Assembly (NCBI RefSeq): GCF_024223415.1
Contig: NZ_CP100500.1
Reading direction: 5' to 3' (one strand)
Length of the DNA stretch: 64,000 nt
Origin: Escherichia coli
GTDB taxonomy: Bacteria; Pseudomonadota; Gammaproteobacteria; Enterobacterales; Enterobacteriaceae
Shown one piece after another: positions 55,222-63,918 of this stretch. The first letter of the stretch is position 1; each line of letters opens with the position of its first letter. The notes below the pieces were generated by a model that searched no databases, was not told the origin of the DNA, and worked only from the letters and a program-made list of their open reading frames with translations. Made by a program: the position numbers and the translations under genes.

Positions 55222-56984
55222 TTAACATTACAAGATATAAGTAATGGACGCACTCCCAATTAGTCTATTTAAATCGCCACGAGTTTAACTGACAACCCAT
55301 GATCAATTATGAATTGCAACTATTTCTGTAGTCACTTTTGTGGGGACAGTCCACAAAACTGCCAACTTCCGCTTCTTGCTCTTAGCGGACATTAGCATAG
55401 GCTATTTACCATAACGCCTCATTACGCGCACCGCCCAGACTGACTCAGCGCGTTTCTGGCATATCCCCGGTAAAACAAGTAACAACCCCCCCGAAAATGA
55501 ACACCAGAAACGCGACTTAAGAATCTACCCTATGAATGGATATGCACTCAACCGAATCGATCTTGGTTTCAATCTATTTTATCGGGATCAGGCTTCTTTT
55601 TAGGTAACTTCGGGGGCTTAACTTGCTGATGACTTTGCGTTCGGCGCGTAAGCCAGGGATGGTCAGCTTTAGATTTAACATAGTATTTTGAGCGTAAATC
55701 AATACGGGCATTATCCACTCGTTCATGGACACTCTTTTCATCATCCAGTGGTATAGGCTCCGGGCCATCAACATACTTTTCCCAGCCCAGCGCTTTCCCG
55801 TCATACAGAACGTTAATTTCACCGTCAAAGTTCTCACATACAGTAACAACCGAATGCCTAAGTCGATATCCCCGGCCCTCACTGCGTACCTGAAACGCAC
55901 TGCTTTTGTACTGGAAAGTGAGATTTTTAGACAGAACGCGCTTCGCCTGTAGGCTGAAGATATAACCCAGTTCCTCTTCAGAATGGTGCACATCAAGATG
56001 AGCATTATCAGTAGTACGAGGCGACGTAGCGAACCGGTTGTTATAGGCTTCAATAAAGGTCGGCAACCATGCATTTGCTGTTTCAATATCACTGATATTC
56101 TGAAGCCGCATTTCTTTGACCAGCCTGTCCTGTAGTGTCTGATTGGCGCGCTCTACCCGCCCTTTTGCCTGCGGGCTGTTGGCATGGATTGGCTCGATGC
56201 CCAGTGTCTTTATCGCACGAGTGAACTGGGTCAGCTCACCTTCCCGCTCTGGGTTATTTACCCTGAATATACTGTGTCTATCAGAGTAGAGAGCGAGCGG
56301 TACGCCATGATCATTGAGGTAACCCCGGAGGGTTTCCATGTAAGCCCGGGTTGTTTCAGCAGGCACAAAACGCAACGCCATCAACGCACTGGTGGCATCA
56401 TCAATGAAAACGATCAGTGTACATCTGGGGCCTCGATTTTCAAACCAGTCATGAGGTGAGCCATCAATCTGGATCAGTTCACCGTAAGATGGTCGTCGCA
56501 TGCGGCGTTGATATATACGGGCAATTTTACGACGGCGTTCACGCCATAACCCCTCTTCTATCATCCACTTTCTGAGAGTTTCAACGGATAAAGATAAACC
56601 GTGTATCTCGCGCAATTTTTCGCACGCAAACGTAGGTCCAAAATCAGCGTAACGGCCTTTGAGGAGTGAAATTACTGTTGCTCTGAATTCAGTAGAAAAG
56701 AAATTATTAGGACGCTTTCCACGTCGGTGGGAAACCAGACCAGAAGGCCCTTCATTTCTATACCGTTGCACCAGACGTTTAACCTGCCGAATAGAAATGC
56801 CAATGCGTGCCGCAGCTTGTTCCTGAGTAATATGTCGATTAATTGACTCCTGAATAATCTGAAGTCGGTGGAGTTCCTTATGACTCATCGTAACAGCTCT
56901 TTGATCATGAAAAATCCCCCAGAGAATTGTCTGGGGACATTTTAGAATGGTTCAAAGGGGACATTACAGCTTGGTGTTAACAAT
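55222..56984 (-). mobile_element. Insertion sequence-like element carrying one DDE transposase; boundaries not resolved
   Basis: Transposase gene with 5' leader and a 3' non-coding tail; degenerate inverted similarity GTTAACA...CAAG...GTAATG at both ends; interrupts the 3' end of a phage replication-region ORF. Confidence 0.3.
55569..56888 (-). CDS. DDE transposase with N-terminal HTH and rve (integrase core) domain; IS481/ISNCY-like, 439 aa
   Basis: N-terminal HTH (AARIGISIRQVKRLVQRY) followed by D...D...E integrase-core spacing. Confidence 0.85.
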   Translation of the reverse strand: MSHKELHRLQIIQESINRHITQEQAAARIGISIRQVKRLVQRYRNEGPSGLVSHRRGKRPNNFFSTEFRATVISLLKGRYADFGPTFACEKLREIHGLSLSVETLRKWMIEEGLWRERRRKIARIYQRRMRRPSYGELIQIDGSPHDWFENRGPRCTLIVFIDDATSALMALRFVPAETTRAYMETLRGYLNDHGVPLALYSDRHSIFRVNNPEREGELTQFTRAIKTLGIEPIHANSPQAKGRVERANQTLQDRLVKEMRLQNISDIETANAWLPTFIEAYNNRFATSPRTTDNAHLDVHHSEEELGYIFSLQAKRVLSKNLTFQYKSSAFQVRSEGRGYRLRHSVVTVCENFDGEINVLYDGKALGWEKYVDGPEPIPLDDEKSVHERVDNARIDLRSKYYVKSKADHPWLTRRTQSHQQVKPPKLPKKKPDPDKID

Positions 56985-57361
56985 AGCCTGCTTCTCCTTG
57001 CCTTCCGGCACTCGCGACAGATTATGTTTAGACGACTGTCGTAGCGACGTATTTCTCCGTCAGGTAATGACCAGATAAGGTCCGGATCAACCACAGCAGG
57101 TTTCTTCACCTTTGCCCTCGAGAGTTTTTTGCGGGCGTTTTGCCAGTCCTTACGCGCCTGTTCAGACGGGAATAACCCGTAACCAGAGCTGTATACATCG
57201 CCACTGGCAACCAGCTCTCTGGCCAGAACGCTCATCAGATATCTTGTTGCCCCAGTTTTAGCTTCCAGTTGTCGTAACGTCTCGCGCCCACTCTGGCGTA
57301 CGAGTTCCACCACCTGCCCTTTAATTTTTTCCCGCTCTTCTTGTGTAAAAACTTTTGCCAC
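56942..57361 (-). CDS. Hypothetical phage replication-region protein, 139 aa; 3' end apparently fused to IS-derived sequence
   Basis: ORF immediately downstream of the O-like gene; last codons run into the transposase leader. Confidence 0.45.
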   Translation of the reverse strand: MAKVFTQEEREKIKGQVVELVRQSGRETLRQLEAKTGATRYLMSVLARELVASGDVYSSGYGLFPSEQARKDWQNARKKLSRAKVKKPAVVDPDLIWSLPDGEIRRYDSRLNIICRECRKARRSRLLLTPSCNVPFEPF

Positions 57362-57401
57362 AAGTCCTCCTGAACATTACTTTATACCCTAAAATCAACA
57401 C

Positions 57402-58367
57402 TTATCCCCTGAAACCAGGCGGAATTTCTGTATCCGGTTCAGAAATATGATTCACACAACGCTGTACAGGTGAACGTCCCAGGCGGATGACCAGTTCGTC
57501 CCATTTTTCGCGGAGTTTTGACGGGCTCATGATGTTTTTTACCCAGAATTGATCTCGCTGTACCCGACCAAACATTTCGCAAATTTGTCTGTGGCTTCTG
57601 CCATCCAGCATCCGCATTGTGCGCACGTCATTGGCCCAGGCTGTCCAGTTAGGCTCTTTTGGTCGCATGATCTCTCCATCGTCGCTGGCAGCCTGTTCGT
57701 AAAGGTTCACGATCCGCCCCCAAATCCACTGCGCACACGCCAAATCCTCCCTGCTACCCCACTGGCGTTTTTTCGCACTAAACACAACCGCGTCGGGGTT
57801 CCGGGTTAAAAAATCCTGTTCAGCGGTCTGCGGGTCCGGTTGCGAAGCTTCCGGACGAAAAGTGTTTTTATTCTCTGTAGTAATCTCTGTTGTATTCTCT
57901 GTAAGATCATCAGGCCATTTTGACCCGATGACATTGGGTCGTTTTGAACCAATGGAGCGTTTCATTTTGACCTCTTCCATCGTGTCATTTTGACCTGATG
58001 GAGCGGCGCATTTTAAACCGATGGATTCGCTCAATTTGCCACCATCTAAAAGCTCGCTCCCGTAGTTGATCGTGTAGAAATTGGTCATATCGCGCTTTGA
58101 TTTATTGAGCTTTTCACAACGCAAAAGCCCCAGCGTTTTCAGACTTGCAAACGCGCGCTTTAACGTTGACTCTGACCAGAATGGGAACTGTTCCAGCCAT
58201 TGTTCCGTTGTGTTGTAAATCCAGCGAACACCATCACATTCCATGCCGGAATTGGTATCTCTCAACCAGTAATGCAACTGCTGCAACACAATGGCTTCAT
58301 TTAAGCCAATCTTCATCGCAAGCTGTGTGTTTATAACCAGTGGGCGTTCAGCAAAAAGAAGGCTCAT
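57402..58367 (-). CDS. Replication initiation protein (phage O-like / DnaD-like N-terminal domain), about 321 aa
   Basis: Start at MSLLFAERPLVINTQLAMKIGLNEAIVLQQLHYWL; position after the cro/cII-like genes. Confidence 0.6.
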   Translation of the reverse strand: MSLLFAERPLVINTQLAMKIGLNEAIVLQQLHYWLRDTNSGMECDGVRWIYNTTEQWLEQFPFWSESTLKRAFASLKTLGLLRCEKLNKSKRDMTNFYTINYGSELLDGGKLSESIGLKCAAPSGQNDTMEEVKMKRSIGSKRPNVIGSKWPDDLTENTTEITTENKNTFRPEASQPDPQTAEQDFLTRNPDAVVFSAKKRQWGSREDLACAQWIWGRIVNLYEQAASDDGEIMRPKEPNWTAWANDVRTMRMLDGRSHRQICEMFGRVQRDQFWVKNIMSPSKLREKWDELVIRLGRSPVQRCVNHISEPDTEIPPGFRG

Positions 58368-58869
58368 AATTCCATCCAGCTTTTTGTTGGTATTGCTGTC
58401 GATACGCAAGTTTGAAAGCAATTGCTTTTTCTATAAGTTCATCAGTTTCACGATCCACTACGGCAGGATCAGCAAAAAGCAGTCCGGACTCCACCACATC
58501 GCCATATTCTTTGTTTAACCCGGCGATCATGTACGTGATGCTTTTTCCGTCACTAATTTCACGATACAACCTGAAATCATTAATCCGAATAGCCTCCATA
58601 ATTGCAGGCACTAGCGCCGTGAACTTTTCACGCTTATCCCTGGTGTCGATAGCCTTCCAGCGTTCGAATATCTTCACTCGATTAACGCCAAGTGCTCGCT
58701 GATCAACCGCGCCACCTTCATCTGTGACACGCTGAACATCGATGTTCGGGCGCTCTTTCAAAGCCCAGAATGCTTCAGTGATTAATATCGTCGCCTGCTC
58801 CTGTGTCATTCCTGGTCGACATATCCAGGCATCCAGAGCCTCACGAGCCTGTTCAGGAGTGATTTTCAT
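58348..58869 (-). CDS. Hypothetical regulatory protein (cII/YdaT-like position), 173 aa
   Basis: ORF between the cro-like gene and the O-like gene. Confidence 0.45.
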   Translation of the reverse strand: MKITPEQAREALDAWICRPGMTQEQATILITEAFWALKERPNIDVQRVTDEGGAVDQRALGVNRVKIFERWKAIDTRDKREKFTALVPAIMEAIRINDFRLYREISDGKSITYMIAGLNKEYGDVVESGLLFADPAVVDRETDELIEKAIAFKLAYRQQYQQKAGWNYEPSFC

Positions 58870-59080
58870 TGTTCAACCGCCCCGCCCGCTTCGTCTTACG
58901 GTATTCGTCATAAACCTTGGGATCATACAGAAGCTCGCCGCCAGATGCCTCCTGTAGACGCATCGCGCGACCTTCAGGAACCAGCTCTTGCCATTGAGAA
59001 ACAGCAGATGGGTCAACGCCAGCAGCTTTCGCTACTTTGGCTTTCGTACCGTAAAAATTAATTACGTCTGATTTAAACAT
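58853..59080 (-). CDS. dicC: Cro-like repressor DicC, about 75 aa
   Basis: Start at MFKSDVINFYGTKAKVA with GGAGGTG SD; C-terminal half (VPEGRAMRLQEASGGEL...YDEYRKTKRAGRLNNENHS) recognised as DicC. Confidence 0.75.
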   Translation of the reverse strand: MFKSDVINFYGTKAKVAKAAGVDPSAVSQWQELVPEGRAMRLQEASGGELLYDPKVYDEYRKTKRAGRLNNENHS

Positions 59081-59157
59081 CGCACCTCCAATATTGAGTT
59101 TTCTCAATGCTAATCACTCAAGGAATCTCAAGTCAAGGGTTATTAAGATATCTAAAT
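59081..59157. promoter_or_regulatory. Divergent dicC/dicA promoter-operator region
   Basis: Palindrome TTGAGttttCTCAA and repeated TCAAGG motifs between divergent repressor genes. Confidence 0.4.
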
Positions 59158-59565
59158 ATGAACGAGAAAACTTTAGGTCAACGCATTAGAGAAAGACGTA
59201 AGCAGGTAGGCTTAAGTCAAAACGGTTTAAGCAAAGCTGCTGGCGTATCTGGCTCATCAATTTCATTATGGGAAAGTGACCATACAGCCCCGCGCGGGCA
59301 AAATTTGCATCGCCTCGCCGAGGTATTGCAATGTTCACCAACTTGGATACTGTTTGGCGACGAGGACAAAACACCAGCTCCCCCTGTTTCACTCGATAGT
59401 GCCTTAGACTTATCGGAAGATGAGTTAGAGATGCTGCGTTTGTATCGCGCACTTCCTAAATCAGAGCAACAAGCACAACTCAGCGAACTCCGCGCCCGCG
59501 TTGAGAATTTTAATCGCCTGTTCACCGAGCTATTAGAGGCTCGCAAACGCAACAAGCATCAATAA
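59158..59565 (+). CDS. dicA: CI-like XRE-family repressor DicA, 135 aa
   Basis: Start at MNEKTLGQRIRERRKQVGLSQ; HTH_XRE; VLQCSPTWILFGDEDK motif recognised. Confidence 0.8.
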   Translation: MNEKTLGQRIRERRKQVGLSQNGLSKAAGVSGSSISLWESDHTAPRGQNLHRLAEVLQCSPTWILFGDEDKTPAPPVSLDSALDLSEDELEMLRLYRALPKSEQQAQLSELRARVENFNRLFTELLEARKRNKHQ

Positions 59566-59757
59566 TCATCCCTTCACAAAATTTTAAAGCCTTACATTTC
59601 AATGTATTGGCTTTATCTTGCGCCAACACTTGAGTTTTCTCATCAAAAAACCTTGACGAAAAATAATGAGAAAACTAAATTACCTCCATCAAGACACCGC
59701 ACGGTGTTCTCAGCAAACAGTTCCGCTACCCCGGCGTTAAGGGGAAATGAGGTCAGC

Positions 59758-59913
59758 ATGGATACTATCGATCTTGGCAACAGCGAATCTCTGGTATGTG
59801 GCGTGTTCCCCAACCAGGACGGCACGTTCACCGCGATGACGTATACCAAAAGCAAAACGTTTAAAACCGAAAATGGTGCCCGTCGCTGGCTGGAAAGAAA
59901 CTCAGGTGAGTGA
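59758..59913 (+). CDS. ydfA: YdfA, 51 aa
   Basis: MDTIDLGNSESLVCGVFPNQDGTFTAMTYTKSKTFKTENGARRWLERNSGE; not on track. Confidence 0.8.
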   Translation: MDTIDLGNSESLVCGVFPNQDGTFTAMTYTKSKTFKTENGARRWLERNSGE

Positions 59914-59914
59914 T

Positions 59915-60490
59915 ATGGATTTCGACACAATCATGGAAAAGGCTTACGAAGAATACTTCGAAGGCCTTGCCGAAGGCGAAGAAGCTCTCAGCTTCAGTGA
60001 GTTTAAACAGGCACTCAGAATAAGAATGTGCTCTCACAATGACGCGGAGCACAAATATGAGAAGCAAAATCAGACCGCAGAAAATTTTGTTCTGGAACCC
60101 GGAGAAACGCTTTTCAAAATTCCCGTTACGTGCCCCATTTGCGGTTTTACATCAGAAGAACTTGACGACTCCTGTAACAATCAGGAAACAACCAAGTATG
60201 TCGAAGATGATACCGAGTGCGCACGAAGAACGATTATATCCACGAGTCCAAACTCCAGGACCAATAAATCTCACTATGAGAGGGTGATTAATCCACTCCC
60301 CCAAACCAATAAAAAAGATGCCGGAGGACAAAAAACCCAATGGAACAACGGGATATCTGTCAAAAAAAGACGTTCCATTAAAGACAAACAACGCAGCGCC
60401 AACAACTGTAAGCGCTTTATACCAGTAATCAATTTTCATGTTCTTAAGCGGATTTATTGGTGGTTGCGACATTGCTTAATGAATCCTTAA
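59915..60490 (+). CDS. YdfB/YdfC-like protein as a single 192-aa ORF
   Basis: Start ATG overlaps the ydfA stop; N-terminus MDFDTIMEKAYEEYFEGLAEGEEALSFSEFKQAL matches YdfB; contains a CPIC zinc-finger-like motif. Confidence 0.6.
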   Translation: MDFDTIMEKAYEEYFEGLAEGEEALSFSEFKQALRIRMCSHNDAEHKYEKQNQTAENFVLEPGETLFKIPVTCPICGFTSEELDDSCNNQETTKYVEDDTECARRTIISTSPNSRTNKSHYERVINPLPQTNKKDAGGQKTQWNNGISVKKRRSIKDKQRSANNCKRFIPVINFHVLKRIYWWLRHCLMNP

Positions 60491-60749
60491 AACTGTGGTG
60501 ATTTTAAGGATACCACCTCGCCTGACGTGGTTAAAAGCAGGCACACAACACGAAAGCGCACGGCGAAGTTCGTCTCACTGTACGGTGTCGTTAAATTTAA
60601 TTCGACCGTGCGCTTCCGGTTGTGGCAACCCGCAAAATGGCGCGGCGGTAAGTATGGCGGGGTTATTCCTTCCCCGTTGAGGACACCGGGTTGTCAGGTT
60701 GACCATACGCTTAAGTGACAACCCCGCTGCAACGCCCTCTGTTATCAAT

Positions 60750-60807
60750 TTTCTGGTGACGTTTGGCGGTATCAGTTTTACTCCGTGACTGCTCTGCCGC
60801 CCTTTTT
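60750..60807 (+). ncRNA. dicF: DicF small RNA (ftsZ translation inhibitor), with intrinsic terminator
   Basis: TTTCTGGTGACGTTTGGCGGTATCAGTTTTACTCCGTGACTGCTCTGCCGCCCTTTTT read directly; recognised DicF sequence. Confidence 0.7.
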
Positions 60808-61446: not shown

Positions 61447-63918
61447 ATGAGTAAAGTCTTTATTTGCGCCGCTATTCCTGACGAACTGGCAACAAGGGAA
61501 GAAGGCGCTGTGGCTGTAGCCACAGCCATTGAAGCTGGCGACGAACGCCGTGCTCGAGCAAAATTTCACTGGCAATTCCTGGAACATTATCCGGCTGCTC
61601 AGGACTGCGCTTATAAATTTATTGTCTGCGAGGATAAACCTGGCATACCCCGCCCTGCCCTCGATTCATGGGATGCTGAATATATGCAGGAAAACCGCTG
61701 GGATGAGGAGTCTGCTTCTTTTGTCCCGGTTGAGACTGAATCCGATCCGATGAACGTCACTTTTGACAAGCTGGCCCCTGAAGTACAGAACGCTGTCATG
61801 GTTAAGTTCGACACATGTGAAAACATCACCGTTGATATGGTTATTAGCGCACAGGAATTGTTGCAGGAAGACATGGCAACATTCGACGGACATATCGTTG
61901 AAGCGTTGATGAAAATGCCAGAAGTTAACGCCATGTATCCGGAGCTTAAGTTGCACGCCATTGGGTGGGTTAAGCATAAATGTATTCCTGGTGCTAAATG
62001 GCCCGAAATTCAGGCAGAGATGCGCATCTGGAAAAAACGTCGCGAAGGTGAACGCAAGGAAACCGGAAAATACACGTCTGTTGTTGATCTCGCCCGCGCC
62101 AGAGCCAATCAACAGTACACTGAAAATTCAACAGGAAAAATCAGCCCGGTCATTGCTGCCATTCATCGCGAATACAAGCAGACATGGAAAACACTGGATG
62201 ACGAACTGGCCTACGCTCTCTGGCCTGGTGATGTGGATGCCGGAAACATTGACGGCAGCATCCATCGCTGGGCAAAAAAAGAAGTTATCGACAACGACCG
62301 CGAAGACTGGAAGCGTATCTCGGCATCAATGCGCAAACAGCCTGATGCCCTTCGCTACGACCGCCAAACTATTTTTGGCCTTGTCCGTGAGCGTCCGATC
62401 GACATTCACAAAGATCCCGTAGCACTGAACAAATATACCTGCGAATACCTGACGACAAAGGGCGTGTTTGAGAATGAAGAAACAGACCTGGGCACTGTTG
62501 ATGTTCTCCAGTCATCAGAAACACAAACTGATGCAGTGGAAACTGAGGTATCTGATATCCCAAAAAATGAAACCGCGCCGGAAGCTGAACCATCTGTAGA
62601 GCGTGAGGGGCCGTTCTATTTCCTCTTCGCAGATAAGGACGGAGAAAAATACGGTCGCGCAAACAAACTTTCTGGTCTGGATAAGGCACTGGCTGCTGGC
62701 GCCACTGAAATCACAAAAGAAGAATATTTTGCCCGAAAAAATGGCACATACACGGGCTTACCGCAAAATGTAGATACCGCTGAAGATTCAGAACAACCAG
62801 AGCCGATAAAAGTTACCGCTGACGAAGTAAACAAAATTATGCAGGCAGCCAATATCAGCCAGCCTGACGCCGATAAGTTGCTTGCTGCATCACGTGGTGA
62901 ATTTGTTGAAGGGATTAGTGACCCGAATGATCCGAAATGGGTTAAGGGGATCCAGACCCGCGATTCTGTGAACCAGAACCAGCATGAATCGGAACGGAAC
63001 TACCAAAAAGCGGAACAAAACAGTCCAAATGCGTTACAAAACGAGCCAGAAACGAAACAGCCTGAACCAGTGGCGCACCAGGAAGTGGAAAAAGCCTGCA
63101 CCGCCTGCGGTCAGACCGGCGGCGGCAACTGCCCTGATTGTGGCGCGGTGATGGGCGACGCAACATACCAGGAAACATTCGATGAAGAGTATCAGGTTGA
63201 AGTTCAGGAAGATGATCCGGAGGAAATGGAAGGCGCTGAACATCCACACAAGGAGAACACTGGCGGCAATCAGCATCACAATAGCGATAATGAAACTGGC
63301 GAGACGGCAGATCACCCAATTAAGGTGAACGGTCATCACGAAATCACATCCACCAGCAGGACGTGTGACCATCTAATGATCGACCTTGAAACCATGGGAA
63401 AAAATCCTGATGCCCCGATCATCTCAATAGGTGCAATATTTTTCGATCCGCAAACCGGAGATATGGGACCGGAATTTAGTAAGACTATCGATCTGGAAAC
63501 TGCTGGCGGAGTCATTGATCGGGACACCATTAAATGGTGGCTTAAGCAATCACGCGAAGCGCAATCTGCCATTATGACCGATGAAATCCCGTTAGATGAT
63601 GCACTGTTACAATTGCGGGAATTTATCGACGAAAACTCCGGTGAATTTTTTGTTCAGGTTTGGGGAAATGGAGCCAACTTCGACAACACGATTTTGCGCC
63701 GTTCATACGAACGGCAGGGGATCCCCTGCCCGTGGCGTTACTACAACGATCGCGATGTACGCACAATCGTTGAGCTGGGGAAAGCCATAGACTTCGATGC
63801 CAGAACGGCTATTCCATTCGAAGGTGAGCGCCATAATGCACTTGATGACGCCCGTTACCAGGCAAAATACGTTTCAGTTATCTGGCAAAAACTGATCCCA
63901 AGTCAGGCTGATTCTTAA
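61447..63918 (+). CDS. YdfE-like protein with central zinc ribbon and C-terminal DEDDh 3'-5' exonuclease (DnaQ-like) domain, 823 aa
   Basis: C-terminal motifs MIDLET (Exo I), WGNGANFD (Exo II), [10 protein letters not shown] (Exo III); CTACGQ...CPDCG zinc ribbon. Confidence 0.75.

Follow-up and report, generated by a model that had tools for sequence, protein, structure and literature searches.

In bacteriophage lambda, the replication origin is located inside the initiator gene O, where four iterons, palindromic and sharing a TCAAAACG core, precede an AT-rich region. In the Rac prophage (racR-ydaS-ydaT-ydaU-ydaV-ydaW) and in CP-933P, the early region is arranged in the order repressor, Cro-like regulator, YdaT, initiator, (loader) and DUF977 protein, and YdaT of CP-933P was shown to be the equivalent of CII (PMC9986795, PMC8630535). 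A 2025 survey of 314 phages found 'O-only' lambdoid modules in 34 of them and stated that the replication of such phages is not understood (PMC12315714). Phage LLS has only the O gene, forms plaques and was isolated and grown on Escherichia coli K-12 (PMC12315714). Here we describe an early region which matches the gene order of Rac and CP-933P and is contained in a 64,000-nucleotide stretch of E. coli DNA (NCBI RefSeq assembly GCF_024223415.1, contig NZ_CP100500.1; hereafter the window). This region very probably represents the operon for early-right control and replication in a defective lambdoid prophage of the Qin family, encoding an O-type initiator and carrying the origin within the initiator gene. 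As in the 'O-only' modules, LLS included, an O homolog is the sole replication gene and is accompanied by neither a helicase nor a loader gene.

The first-pass annotation of this DNA had described the 321-aa protein of the region as an O-like initiator, and domain searches agree with this description. The protein matches PHROG 391 ('replication initiation O-like') over residues 17-321 (E 4.5e-93), and BLASTP aligned it with lambda O at 34% identity over 148 aa (aa 147-294 only; E 3e-28). Like lambda O, it is encoded downstream of a cro-like gene and a gene in cII position. The label O-like applies to the C-terminal domain, which is homologous to that of lambda O, but not to the N-terminal DNA-binding domain, which belongs to another, RepA_N/DnaD-like family. 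In the AlphaFold2 model (alignment of 46 sequences; mean predicted local distance difference test score, pLDDT, 77.6), the N-domain (aa 1-111) and the helical C-domain (aa 179-297) are predicted with confidence, the linker between them (aa 112-174) is disordered, and the tail has low confidence. The N-domain was modelled as a winged helix with a RepA_N/DnaD-like fold, and its best matches among known structures are replication initiators; for the C-domain, the structure search returned no match among solved structures. Pfam searches with the whole protein and with its halves, up to an E-value of 10, gave nothing useful and no match to Phage_rep_O, RepA_N or DnaD. Phage mEp460_ev081 has an initiator with 99.7% identity in the same module, and the last 41 residues are 100% identical in the initiators of HannyBb and PhiR42_1.

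Some PHROG matches of the 321-aa protein are labelled 'DnaD-like helicase loader', its N-domain has a DnaD/DnaB-like fold, RAST named it 'Primosomal protein I' in the mEp460 and Evi records, and its C-terminus resembles that of DnaT. These features would fit a primosome accessory of the DnaT/DnaD type that hijacks PriA-dependent restart, or a winged-helix regulator, an explanation which we consider very unlikely. DnaT ends in a highly flexible 20-residue tail, which follows a three-helix domain binding single-stranded DNA (PMC5778457), and in the initiator, too, a helical domain is followed by a flexible tail. The similarity of the two proteins is limited, however, to 16-21 residues: phmmer matched the DnaT chains 2ru8, 6aep and 9zbt to the last 21 residues of the initiator only, BLASTP found 14 of 20 tail residues identical (70%; VNxxSEPDxxIPPGFRG), and hhalign, run with an alignment of the C-domain against DnaT, aligned only 16 tail columns. 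Given this last result, a three-helix bundle like that of DnaT was abandoned as a model for the C-domain. Pfam finds PF17948, the DNA-binding domain of DnaT, in DnaT and not in the initiator, and the N-domain of DnaT, which serves oligomerisation and PriB binding, gave no match to the initiator either. Because the likeness stops at the tail and PF17948 is absent, the RAST name is, as judged from the sequence, a misnomer, and the initiator is not a member of the DnaT family. Its gene occupies the O position, has its own iterons and encodes the lambda O C-domain, and the protein is predicted to act at a sequence-specific origin and not, like DnaT, at abandoned forks.

Iteron-like repeats within the O-like gene had been suggested as the place to look for an origin, and a search of the gene detected five of them, all within the DNA that codes for the linker (58034-57846, aa 112-174) (see Table 1). 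Each of these 23-bp iterons is internally palindromic. With up to three mismatches allowed, the iteron core occurs five times in these 116 bp versus 11 times in the rest of the window, where the background rate lets expect about 0.02 matches per 116 bp. An AT-rich segment, the candidate DNA-unwinding element, lies immediately downstream of the iterons in the direction of the gene, and Tandem Repeats Finder reported 2.7 copies of its 12-mer at 57872-57903. From this arrangement we infer that the linker-coding DNA is a lambda-like origin, at which the initiator is predicted to bind the iterons and to unwind the DNA. In lambda, too, the origin lies in the part of the initiator gene that encodes an unstructured linker, and a TCAAAAyG core is common to both; the number of iterons (five here, four in lambda) and their sequence differ.

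The iterons change together with the N-domain, as predicted for a pair of origin and initiator. At 48 viral loci, a C-domain and tail with about 96% identity are combined with an N-domain of the HTH_36 type, and the linker DNA contains different iterons, TTGACCCGTCAA. A relative with about 49% overall identity has iterons with a GGTCAAATTG core in the same place, followed by the same ACAGAGAnTAC repeats. The DNA of these repeats is conserved even between initiator genes whose products share only 40-50% identity, and it yields a conserved 'TE.TTEITTE' peptide. In the genes of HTH_36-type initiators, GATCCrTCAG repeats with Dam sites are found in place of the ACAGAGAnTAC repeats.

The linker peptide contains repeated SIG(L/S)K motifs and the role of the iterons as binding sites is a prediction, so that the repeats might reflect a repetitive, SIGxK-like peptide linker or chance, with the true origin elsewhere. 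This explanation has hardly any chance of being correct. The 23-bp spacing, which is not a multiple of three, places the DNA core in three frames (GLK/GSK, GQN and VKM), and the core is indeed translated in all three of them, as SIGLKC, PSGQND, EEVKMK, SIGSKR and VIGSKW; the repeat is therefore kept as DNA and not as peptide. Moreover, the units are palindromic and confined to 116 bp of the window, they vary with the type of N-domain against a nearly constant C-domain (about 96% identity), and their layout copies that of lambda ori.

Table 1. Features of the early region and its surroundings (positions in the window).
Feature	Position	Strand	Remarks
DicA-type (CI-like) repressor gene	59158-59565	+	135 aa; HTH_3 N-domain
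DicA/DicC control region (divergent promoter/operator)	59081-59157		77 bp
Candidate operator TTGAGTTTTCTCAA	59094-59107		perfect 14-bp palindrome abutting the dicC -10 element
Further operator copies	59630-59643 and 59666-59679 (inverted)		bracket the promoter-like site of the ydfA-dicF-dicB operon
DicC-type (Cro-like) regulator gene	58853-59080	-	75 aa
YdaT-family gene, cII position	58348-58869	-	173 aa; 17-nt overlap with dicC
O-type replication initiator gene	57402-58367	-	321 aa; 20-nt overlap with the YdaT-family gene
Winged-helix N-domain segment	58035-58367	-	aa 1-111; presumed iteron-binding
Five iterons	57908-58023		spacing 23, 23, 23, 24 bp; consensus CATCrGGTCAAAATGnCnyGATG on the gene strand
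AT-rich segment, candidate DNA-unwinding element	57860-57907		GC 0.33; ACAGAGAnTAC 12-mer repeats (gene strand)
Lambda-O-type helical C-domain segment	57477-57845	-	aa 175-297; pLDDT ~90-97
DnaT-like tail segment VQRCVNHISEPDTEIPPGFRG	57405-57467	-	aa 301-321
DUF977/Ren-like ORF	56942-57361	-	139 aa; 40 nt downstream of the initiator gene
ISNCY (IS1202-like) transposase ORF	55569-56888	-	439 aa; module boundary; NCBIfam, RefSeq

With respect to the replication region as a whole, the initiator stands as first described, and a loader gene of the P type or the DnaC type is absent after it. With lambda P and E. coli DnaC as queries, tblastn gave no hit in either the window or the mEp460 locus, and no helicase or loader is annotated in the complete genome of mEp460_ev081. 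The gene that follows the initiator gene encodes a DUF977/Ren-like protein. The locus differs in this respect from lambda, which has a P gene, and from Rac, where the gene for the DnaC-like YdaV directly follows that for the initiator YdaU. The initiators of Rac and LLS are themselves of other types: YdaU has a DUF1376 N-domain and LLS O an HTH_36-like N-domain, each combined with a different C-domain, and the immunity proteins of LLS are unrelated to DicA.

For a survey of loaders, 80 viral loci encoding the same C-domain and tail were compared. The initiator gene leads straight to DUF977 in 45 of them, as in the window. At the other 35 loci, a dnaC-like gene, whose product in these IMG/VR relatives is 50% identical to E. 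coli DnaC, is found 7 nt past the stop codon of the initiator gene and is followed by DUF1627 and DUF977; compared with this class, the window lacks a clean block of about 1.5 kb. A lambda P homolog next to the initiator was not encountered at any of the 80 loci. A scan of viral contigs yielded only relatives with at least 92% identity and so provided no contrast class. The arrangement without a loader is also present in phages deposited as complete genomes (mEp460_ev081, HannyBb, PhiR42_1, Tritos, Evi and LLS). Relatives with a dnaC-like gene (50% identity) no more than 7 nt behind the initiator gene resemble the chromosomal dnaT-dnaC operon in this respect. This host operon also mirrors the phage pairs gp15-gp16 of 75/02 Stx and ydaU-ydaV of Rac.

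The DnaT-like tail was found on at least five unrelated architectures of phage initiators: the 321-aa protein, the HTH_36 type, the Tritos/75/02 Stx type, LLS O and Rac YdaU. The same tail occurs in the absence of a loader gene in the unrelated initiators of Tritos, Evi, 606R7 and 640R1, and with DnaC encoded next to the initiator in Shigella phage 75/02 Stx and in phiSTEC1589; the initiator of Klebsiella phage BUCT711 has it as well. LLS O, which has no loader, ends in ...DTKIPEGFRG, and Rac YdaU ends in ...VNTVSLPDSAIPPGFRG, with ydaV beginning 6 nt later. Homologs of the lambda O C-domain with tryptophan-rich tails are followed by Phage_lambda_P, as seen for lambda (...TDWIYGVDL), P0136 and P0139 (...AEAWENTL). 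Hence, in this modest and non-random sample, the tail travels with a DnaC-type loader or with none, and never with lambda P. The initiators of Tritos and 75/02 resemble the C-terminal domain of DnaT upstream of the tail as well.

That the tail marks initiators lacking a loader was rejected, as a DnaC homolog is encoded next to the initiator at 35 of the 80 tail-bearing loci. We tentatively propose, as a possibility somewhat less likely than not, that the C-terminal motif D-x-x-[IVT]-P-x-G-F-R-G-COOH, which the initiators have in common with host DnaT, may be a portable adaptor which connects phage initiators to a DnaC-type loader of either the phage or the host. How DnaT itself recruits DnaB-DnaC is described as still unknown (PMC13377028). 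The likeness of the tail to DnaT is not entirely new, since the C-terminal motif of DnaT was already noted in the domesticated O-like protein DopC by Brezellec et al. (PMC5509034).

The divergence of a dicC-like and a dicA-like gene across a 77-bp space, as recorded in the first-pass annotation, agrees to the base with the map of open reading frames (ORFs), and so does the order of dicC and the 173-aa, 321-aa and 139-aa ORFs, the last of which lies just beyond the interval 57402-59565 that had been assigned to the region. Both regulators were confirmed by family models: the DicA-like protein matches NCBIfam DicA NF007257 (E 7.8e-72, 239 bits, cut-off 101) and contains the Pfam domain HTH_3, and the DicC-like protein matches NCBIfam DicC NF007282 (E 2.8e-49, 165 bits, cut-off 130) and Pfam P22_Cro (E 3.4e-16). 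An S24 peptidase domain was not found by Pfam in the DicA-type repressor; RecA-mediated self-cleavage is therefore not expected. The control region has a GC content of 0.32 and contains a sigma-70-like promoter directed toward dicC (-35 TTGACT at 59136-59131, -10 TAGCAT ending at 59107), which is abutted by the palindrome TTGAGTTTTCTCAA. A second promoter-like site, that of the ydfA-dicF-dicB operon (-35 TTGACG starting at 59653, -10 TAAATT ending at 59681), is bracketed by the two further copies, and three of the four matches to TTGAGTTTTCTCAA in the window fall in the DicA/DicC-ydfA control region.

In K-12 Qin, dicA and dicC diverge in the same way, and the dicB-operon promoter shows the same architecture with K-12's own operator sequence. 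At the equivalent place, the K-12 operator is TGTTAGTCATAACTAACA, of the type TGTTAG-N6-CTAACA, versus TTGAGTTTTCTCAA in the window. The DicA-like protein shares 57% identity with K-12 DicA and diverges from it in the helix-turn-helix (HTH) region, and the DicC-like protein is 70% identical to K-12 DicC, with the differences in its N-terminal HTH half. As the operator sequences differ and the HTH regions diverge, the repressor would not share the operator specificity of K-12 DicA. Because the architecture is the same while the operator and the proteins differ to this extent, sequence comparison identifies the DicA/DicC pair as a heteroimmune allele with its own operator. DicA is predicted to occupy the TTGAGTTTTCTCAA sites, and a DicA-type repressor with this new operator specificity presumably controls dicF and dicB, by analogy with K-12. 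The DicF antisense small RNA was located at 60751-60802 (+) (Rfam RF00039, 76.7 bits), downstream of the operator-controlled ydfA promoter. A perfect inverted repeat of 14 nt, ACGCCAGCAGCTTT/AAAGCTGCTGGCGT, was observed at 59016-59029 and 59233-59246; it encodes the 'KAAGV' stretch of the HTH with identical codons in the dicC-like and dicA-like genes and could be due to shared ancestry, gene conversion or chance.

The 173-aa ORF, which had been placed in the cII position, belongs to the YdaT family, a functional analogue of CII, according to three types of profile. Pfam YdaT_toxin matches the protein with 26.1 bits (cut-off 21), PHROG 163 ('CII-like transcriptional activator') matches it with an E-value of 2.3e-40, and a profile search of the PDB returned only YdaT of CP-933P (8bt1, E 0.0033) and its homolog 3c4r. 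The YdaT protein of known structure is, as this E-value shows, only distantly related to the 173-aa protein. The AlphaFold2 model (pLDDT 54.5) was too poor to confirm the fold, and its fold search gave noise. In secondary structure, a long loop is seen ahead of the helix at aa 57-72, and a long helix near the C-terminus covers aa 135-164; this pattern would fit the POU-type HTH and the long tetramerising helix described for YdaT (PMC9986795). Inspection of 58850-58900 by eye, without a dedicated search, revealed no convincing inverted repeat of the TTGATT-N6-AATCAA type, the kind of operator expected for YdaT at the end of the cro-like gene from the case of CP-933P; the weak candidates near 58857-58890 are not claimed here.

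K-12 Qin belongs to the same prophage family and occupies the same chromosomal neighbourhood (flxA ... rspB), with flanks that are 97-99% identical to those in the window. It had been stated that K-12 retains only fragments between flxA and dicC and that the early region analysed here is more complete. Indeed, MG1655 has just ydfW (150 nt) and ydfX (291 nt) in this interval, and the alignment shows that K-12 lacks 55754-58589 of the window (about 2.8 kb). The missing part comprises the C-terminal half of YdaT, the initiator gene with its origin, DUF977 and most of the insertion sequence (IS) transposase gene. ydfX corresponds to the first 96 codons of the 173-aa YdaT-family gene, and ydfW to the 3' end of the ISNCY (IS1202-like) transposase ORF. 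ydfX and ydfW are the stumps of the deletion in K-12. Divergence from K-12 spans 58981-59687, that is, the 5' half of dicC, the control region and dicA.

The 139-aa ORF downstream of the initiator gene matches Pfam DUF977 (E 4.1e-22, profile positions 1-115 of 134) and PHROG 142. It is 98% identical to the intact LygF of mEp460 up to aa 119 and unrelated beyond, and the DNA homology ends at about 57004, beside an IS fragment; by these alignments, the ORF is a DUF977 gene that has lost its 3' end. The neighbouring transposase ORF matches NCBIfam transpos_ISNCY_2 (E 5e-139) and is flagged by RefSeq as incomplete. Within the interval 55569-57004, this ISNCY (IS1202/ISEsa1-like) transposase ORF abuts and truncates the DUF977 gene; a search for terminal inverted repeats of the ISNCY element found none. 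A terminator-like hairpin with a T-run at 56916-56937 (-), directly past the DUF977 ORF and bordering the IS fragment, may be the terminator of the early-right operon or part of the IS end.

At least 80% of the stretch 56900-59600 is present in 620 of 5426 complete E. coli genomes, and in the best 25 of the 620 it is at least 99.9% identical. RefSeq annotates the same coding sequences in genomes of 100% or 99.9% identity, and every ORF of the module has a family match in Pfam, PHROG or NCBIfam. Since the region is carried by so many genomes and each ORF has such a match, the ORFs are genuine genes. Three phages with complete genomes, mEp460_ev081, HannyBb and PhiR42_1, carry the same module, and it is labelled similarly in deposited phage records. 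Its neighbours (flxA, relBE, hokD, rem, ydfU, ydfT, cspB/F, essD, ydfA, DicF RNA, dicB, exonuclease, xis and int) identify the surroundings as a Qin-type cryptic prophage adjoining rspAB. IS1 copies have taken the place of the late end of the prophage, an ISNCY insertion is present too, and no head or tail genes were found in the window; the prophage around the module is defective.

Three further observations concern the neighbouring prophage genes. A 205-aa ORF at 59873-60490 (+) (PHROG 35040, E 5.7e-150) occupies the place of K-12 ydfB/ydfC; homology to K-12 breaks off at 60012 and returns at 60533, and RefSeq annotates only a ydfB fragment there. An 823-aa 'exonuclease' gene is intact at 61447-63918 (+) and is also present in phage mEp460_ev081, and its K-12 counterpart is the pseudogene ydfE, split by IS2. 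Finally, two full-length cspA-type thermoregulator 5' untranslated regions (RF01766) at 46822-47207 and 49718-50110 (-) belong to the cold-shock genes of the prophage, the cspI remnant and cspB.

On the reading favoured here, an operon with an O-type initiator and an internal origin, the dicC transcript would run on through overlapping (coupled) frames into the gene for the YdaT-family CII analogue and then into the initiator gene, and the two extra operator copies would gate the ydfA-dicF-dicB promoter. The N-domain of the initiator would bind the iterons, bend the DNA and melt the adjoining AT-rich segment, and transcription from the dicC promoter would activate the origin, as in lambda. With no loader gene present, the host DnaB-DnaC complex may be recruited by direct contact with the C-domain and tail of the initiator. 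Despite the defective state of the prophage, the module probably still works.

Several points weigh against this picture. Iteron binding, DNA unwinding and operator occupancy are all predictions, and the 77-bp region shows a single strong operator, versus three in P22 or lambda. The prophage is defective (IS1 and ISNCY insertions; no head or tail genes), and its replicon may be silent or decaying. The 35 close relatives with a dnaC-like gene have it exactly where the window has none, and the copy in the window could be a deletion derivative. As for the tail, the consulted papers on DnaT assign no partner to it (PMC5778457, PMC13377028), and its 100% identity between unrelated initiators could be due in part to recombination at a module boundary rather than to function.

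Some of these points would also be expected if the locus were a decayed remnant of an initiator-DnaC-DUF1627-DUF977 operon which lost its loader gene by deletion and is dead for replication, with ORFs that have not yet degraded. The relatives that keep the order DnaC-DUF1627-DUF977, the absence from the window of exactly this block, the defective prophage and the truncation of the next gene, DUF977, beside the IS fragment all fit such a history. We nevertheless consider it unlikely, because the order without a loader prevails at more than half of the viral loci (45 of 80) and recurs in complete deposited phages, because LLS forms plaques with an O gene only (PMC12315714), and because all four ORFs are intact and the region is so highly conserved in the best-matching carrier genomes.

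An operon with an O-type initiator and its own origin thus remains the preferred interpretation, and the locus is a typical, so far uncharacterised member of the lambdoid early regions, ordinary apart from a modest new lead. An intact immunity and replication module of the Qin type is kept in E. coli other than K-12, where K-12 has the 2.8-kb deletion, and the origin of the K-12 orphan genes ydfX and ydfW is explained. What is new is a mapped candidate origin, a distinct operator, the explanation of ydfX/ydfW and an idea about O-type modules without a loader. The link of the tail to loaders of the DnaC type and not of the P type provides a concrete, testable hypothesis for 'O-only' replication. 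If the tail is indeed an adaptor, it would account for the loading of DnaB in 'O-only' lambdoid modules, which have no loader gene of their own, and the chromosomal dnaT-dnaC operon would be a domesticated phage initiator-loader pair. The same lead would bear on what the conserved tail of DnaT does during replication restart.

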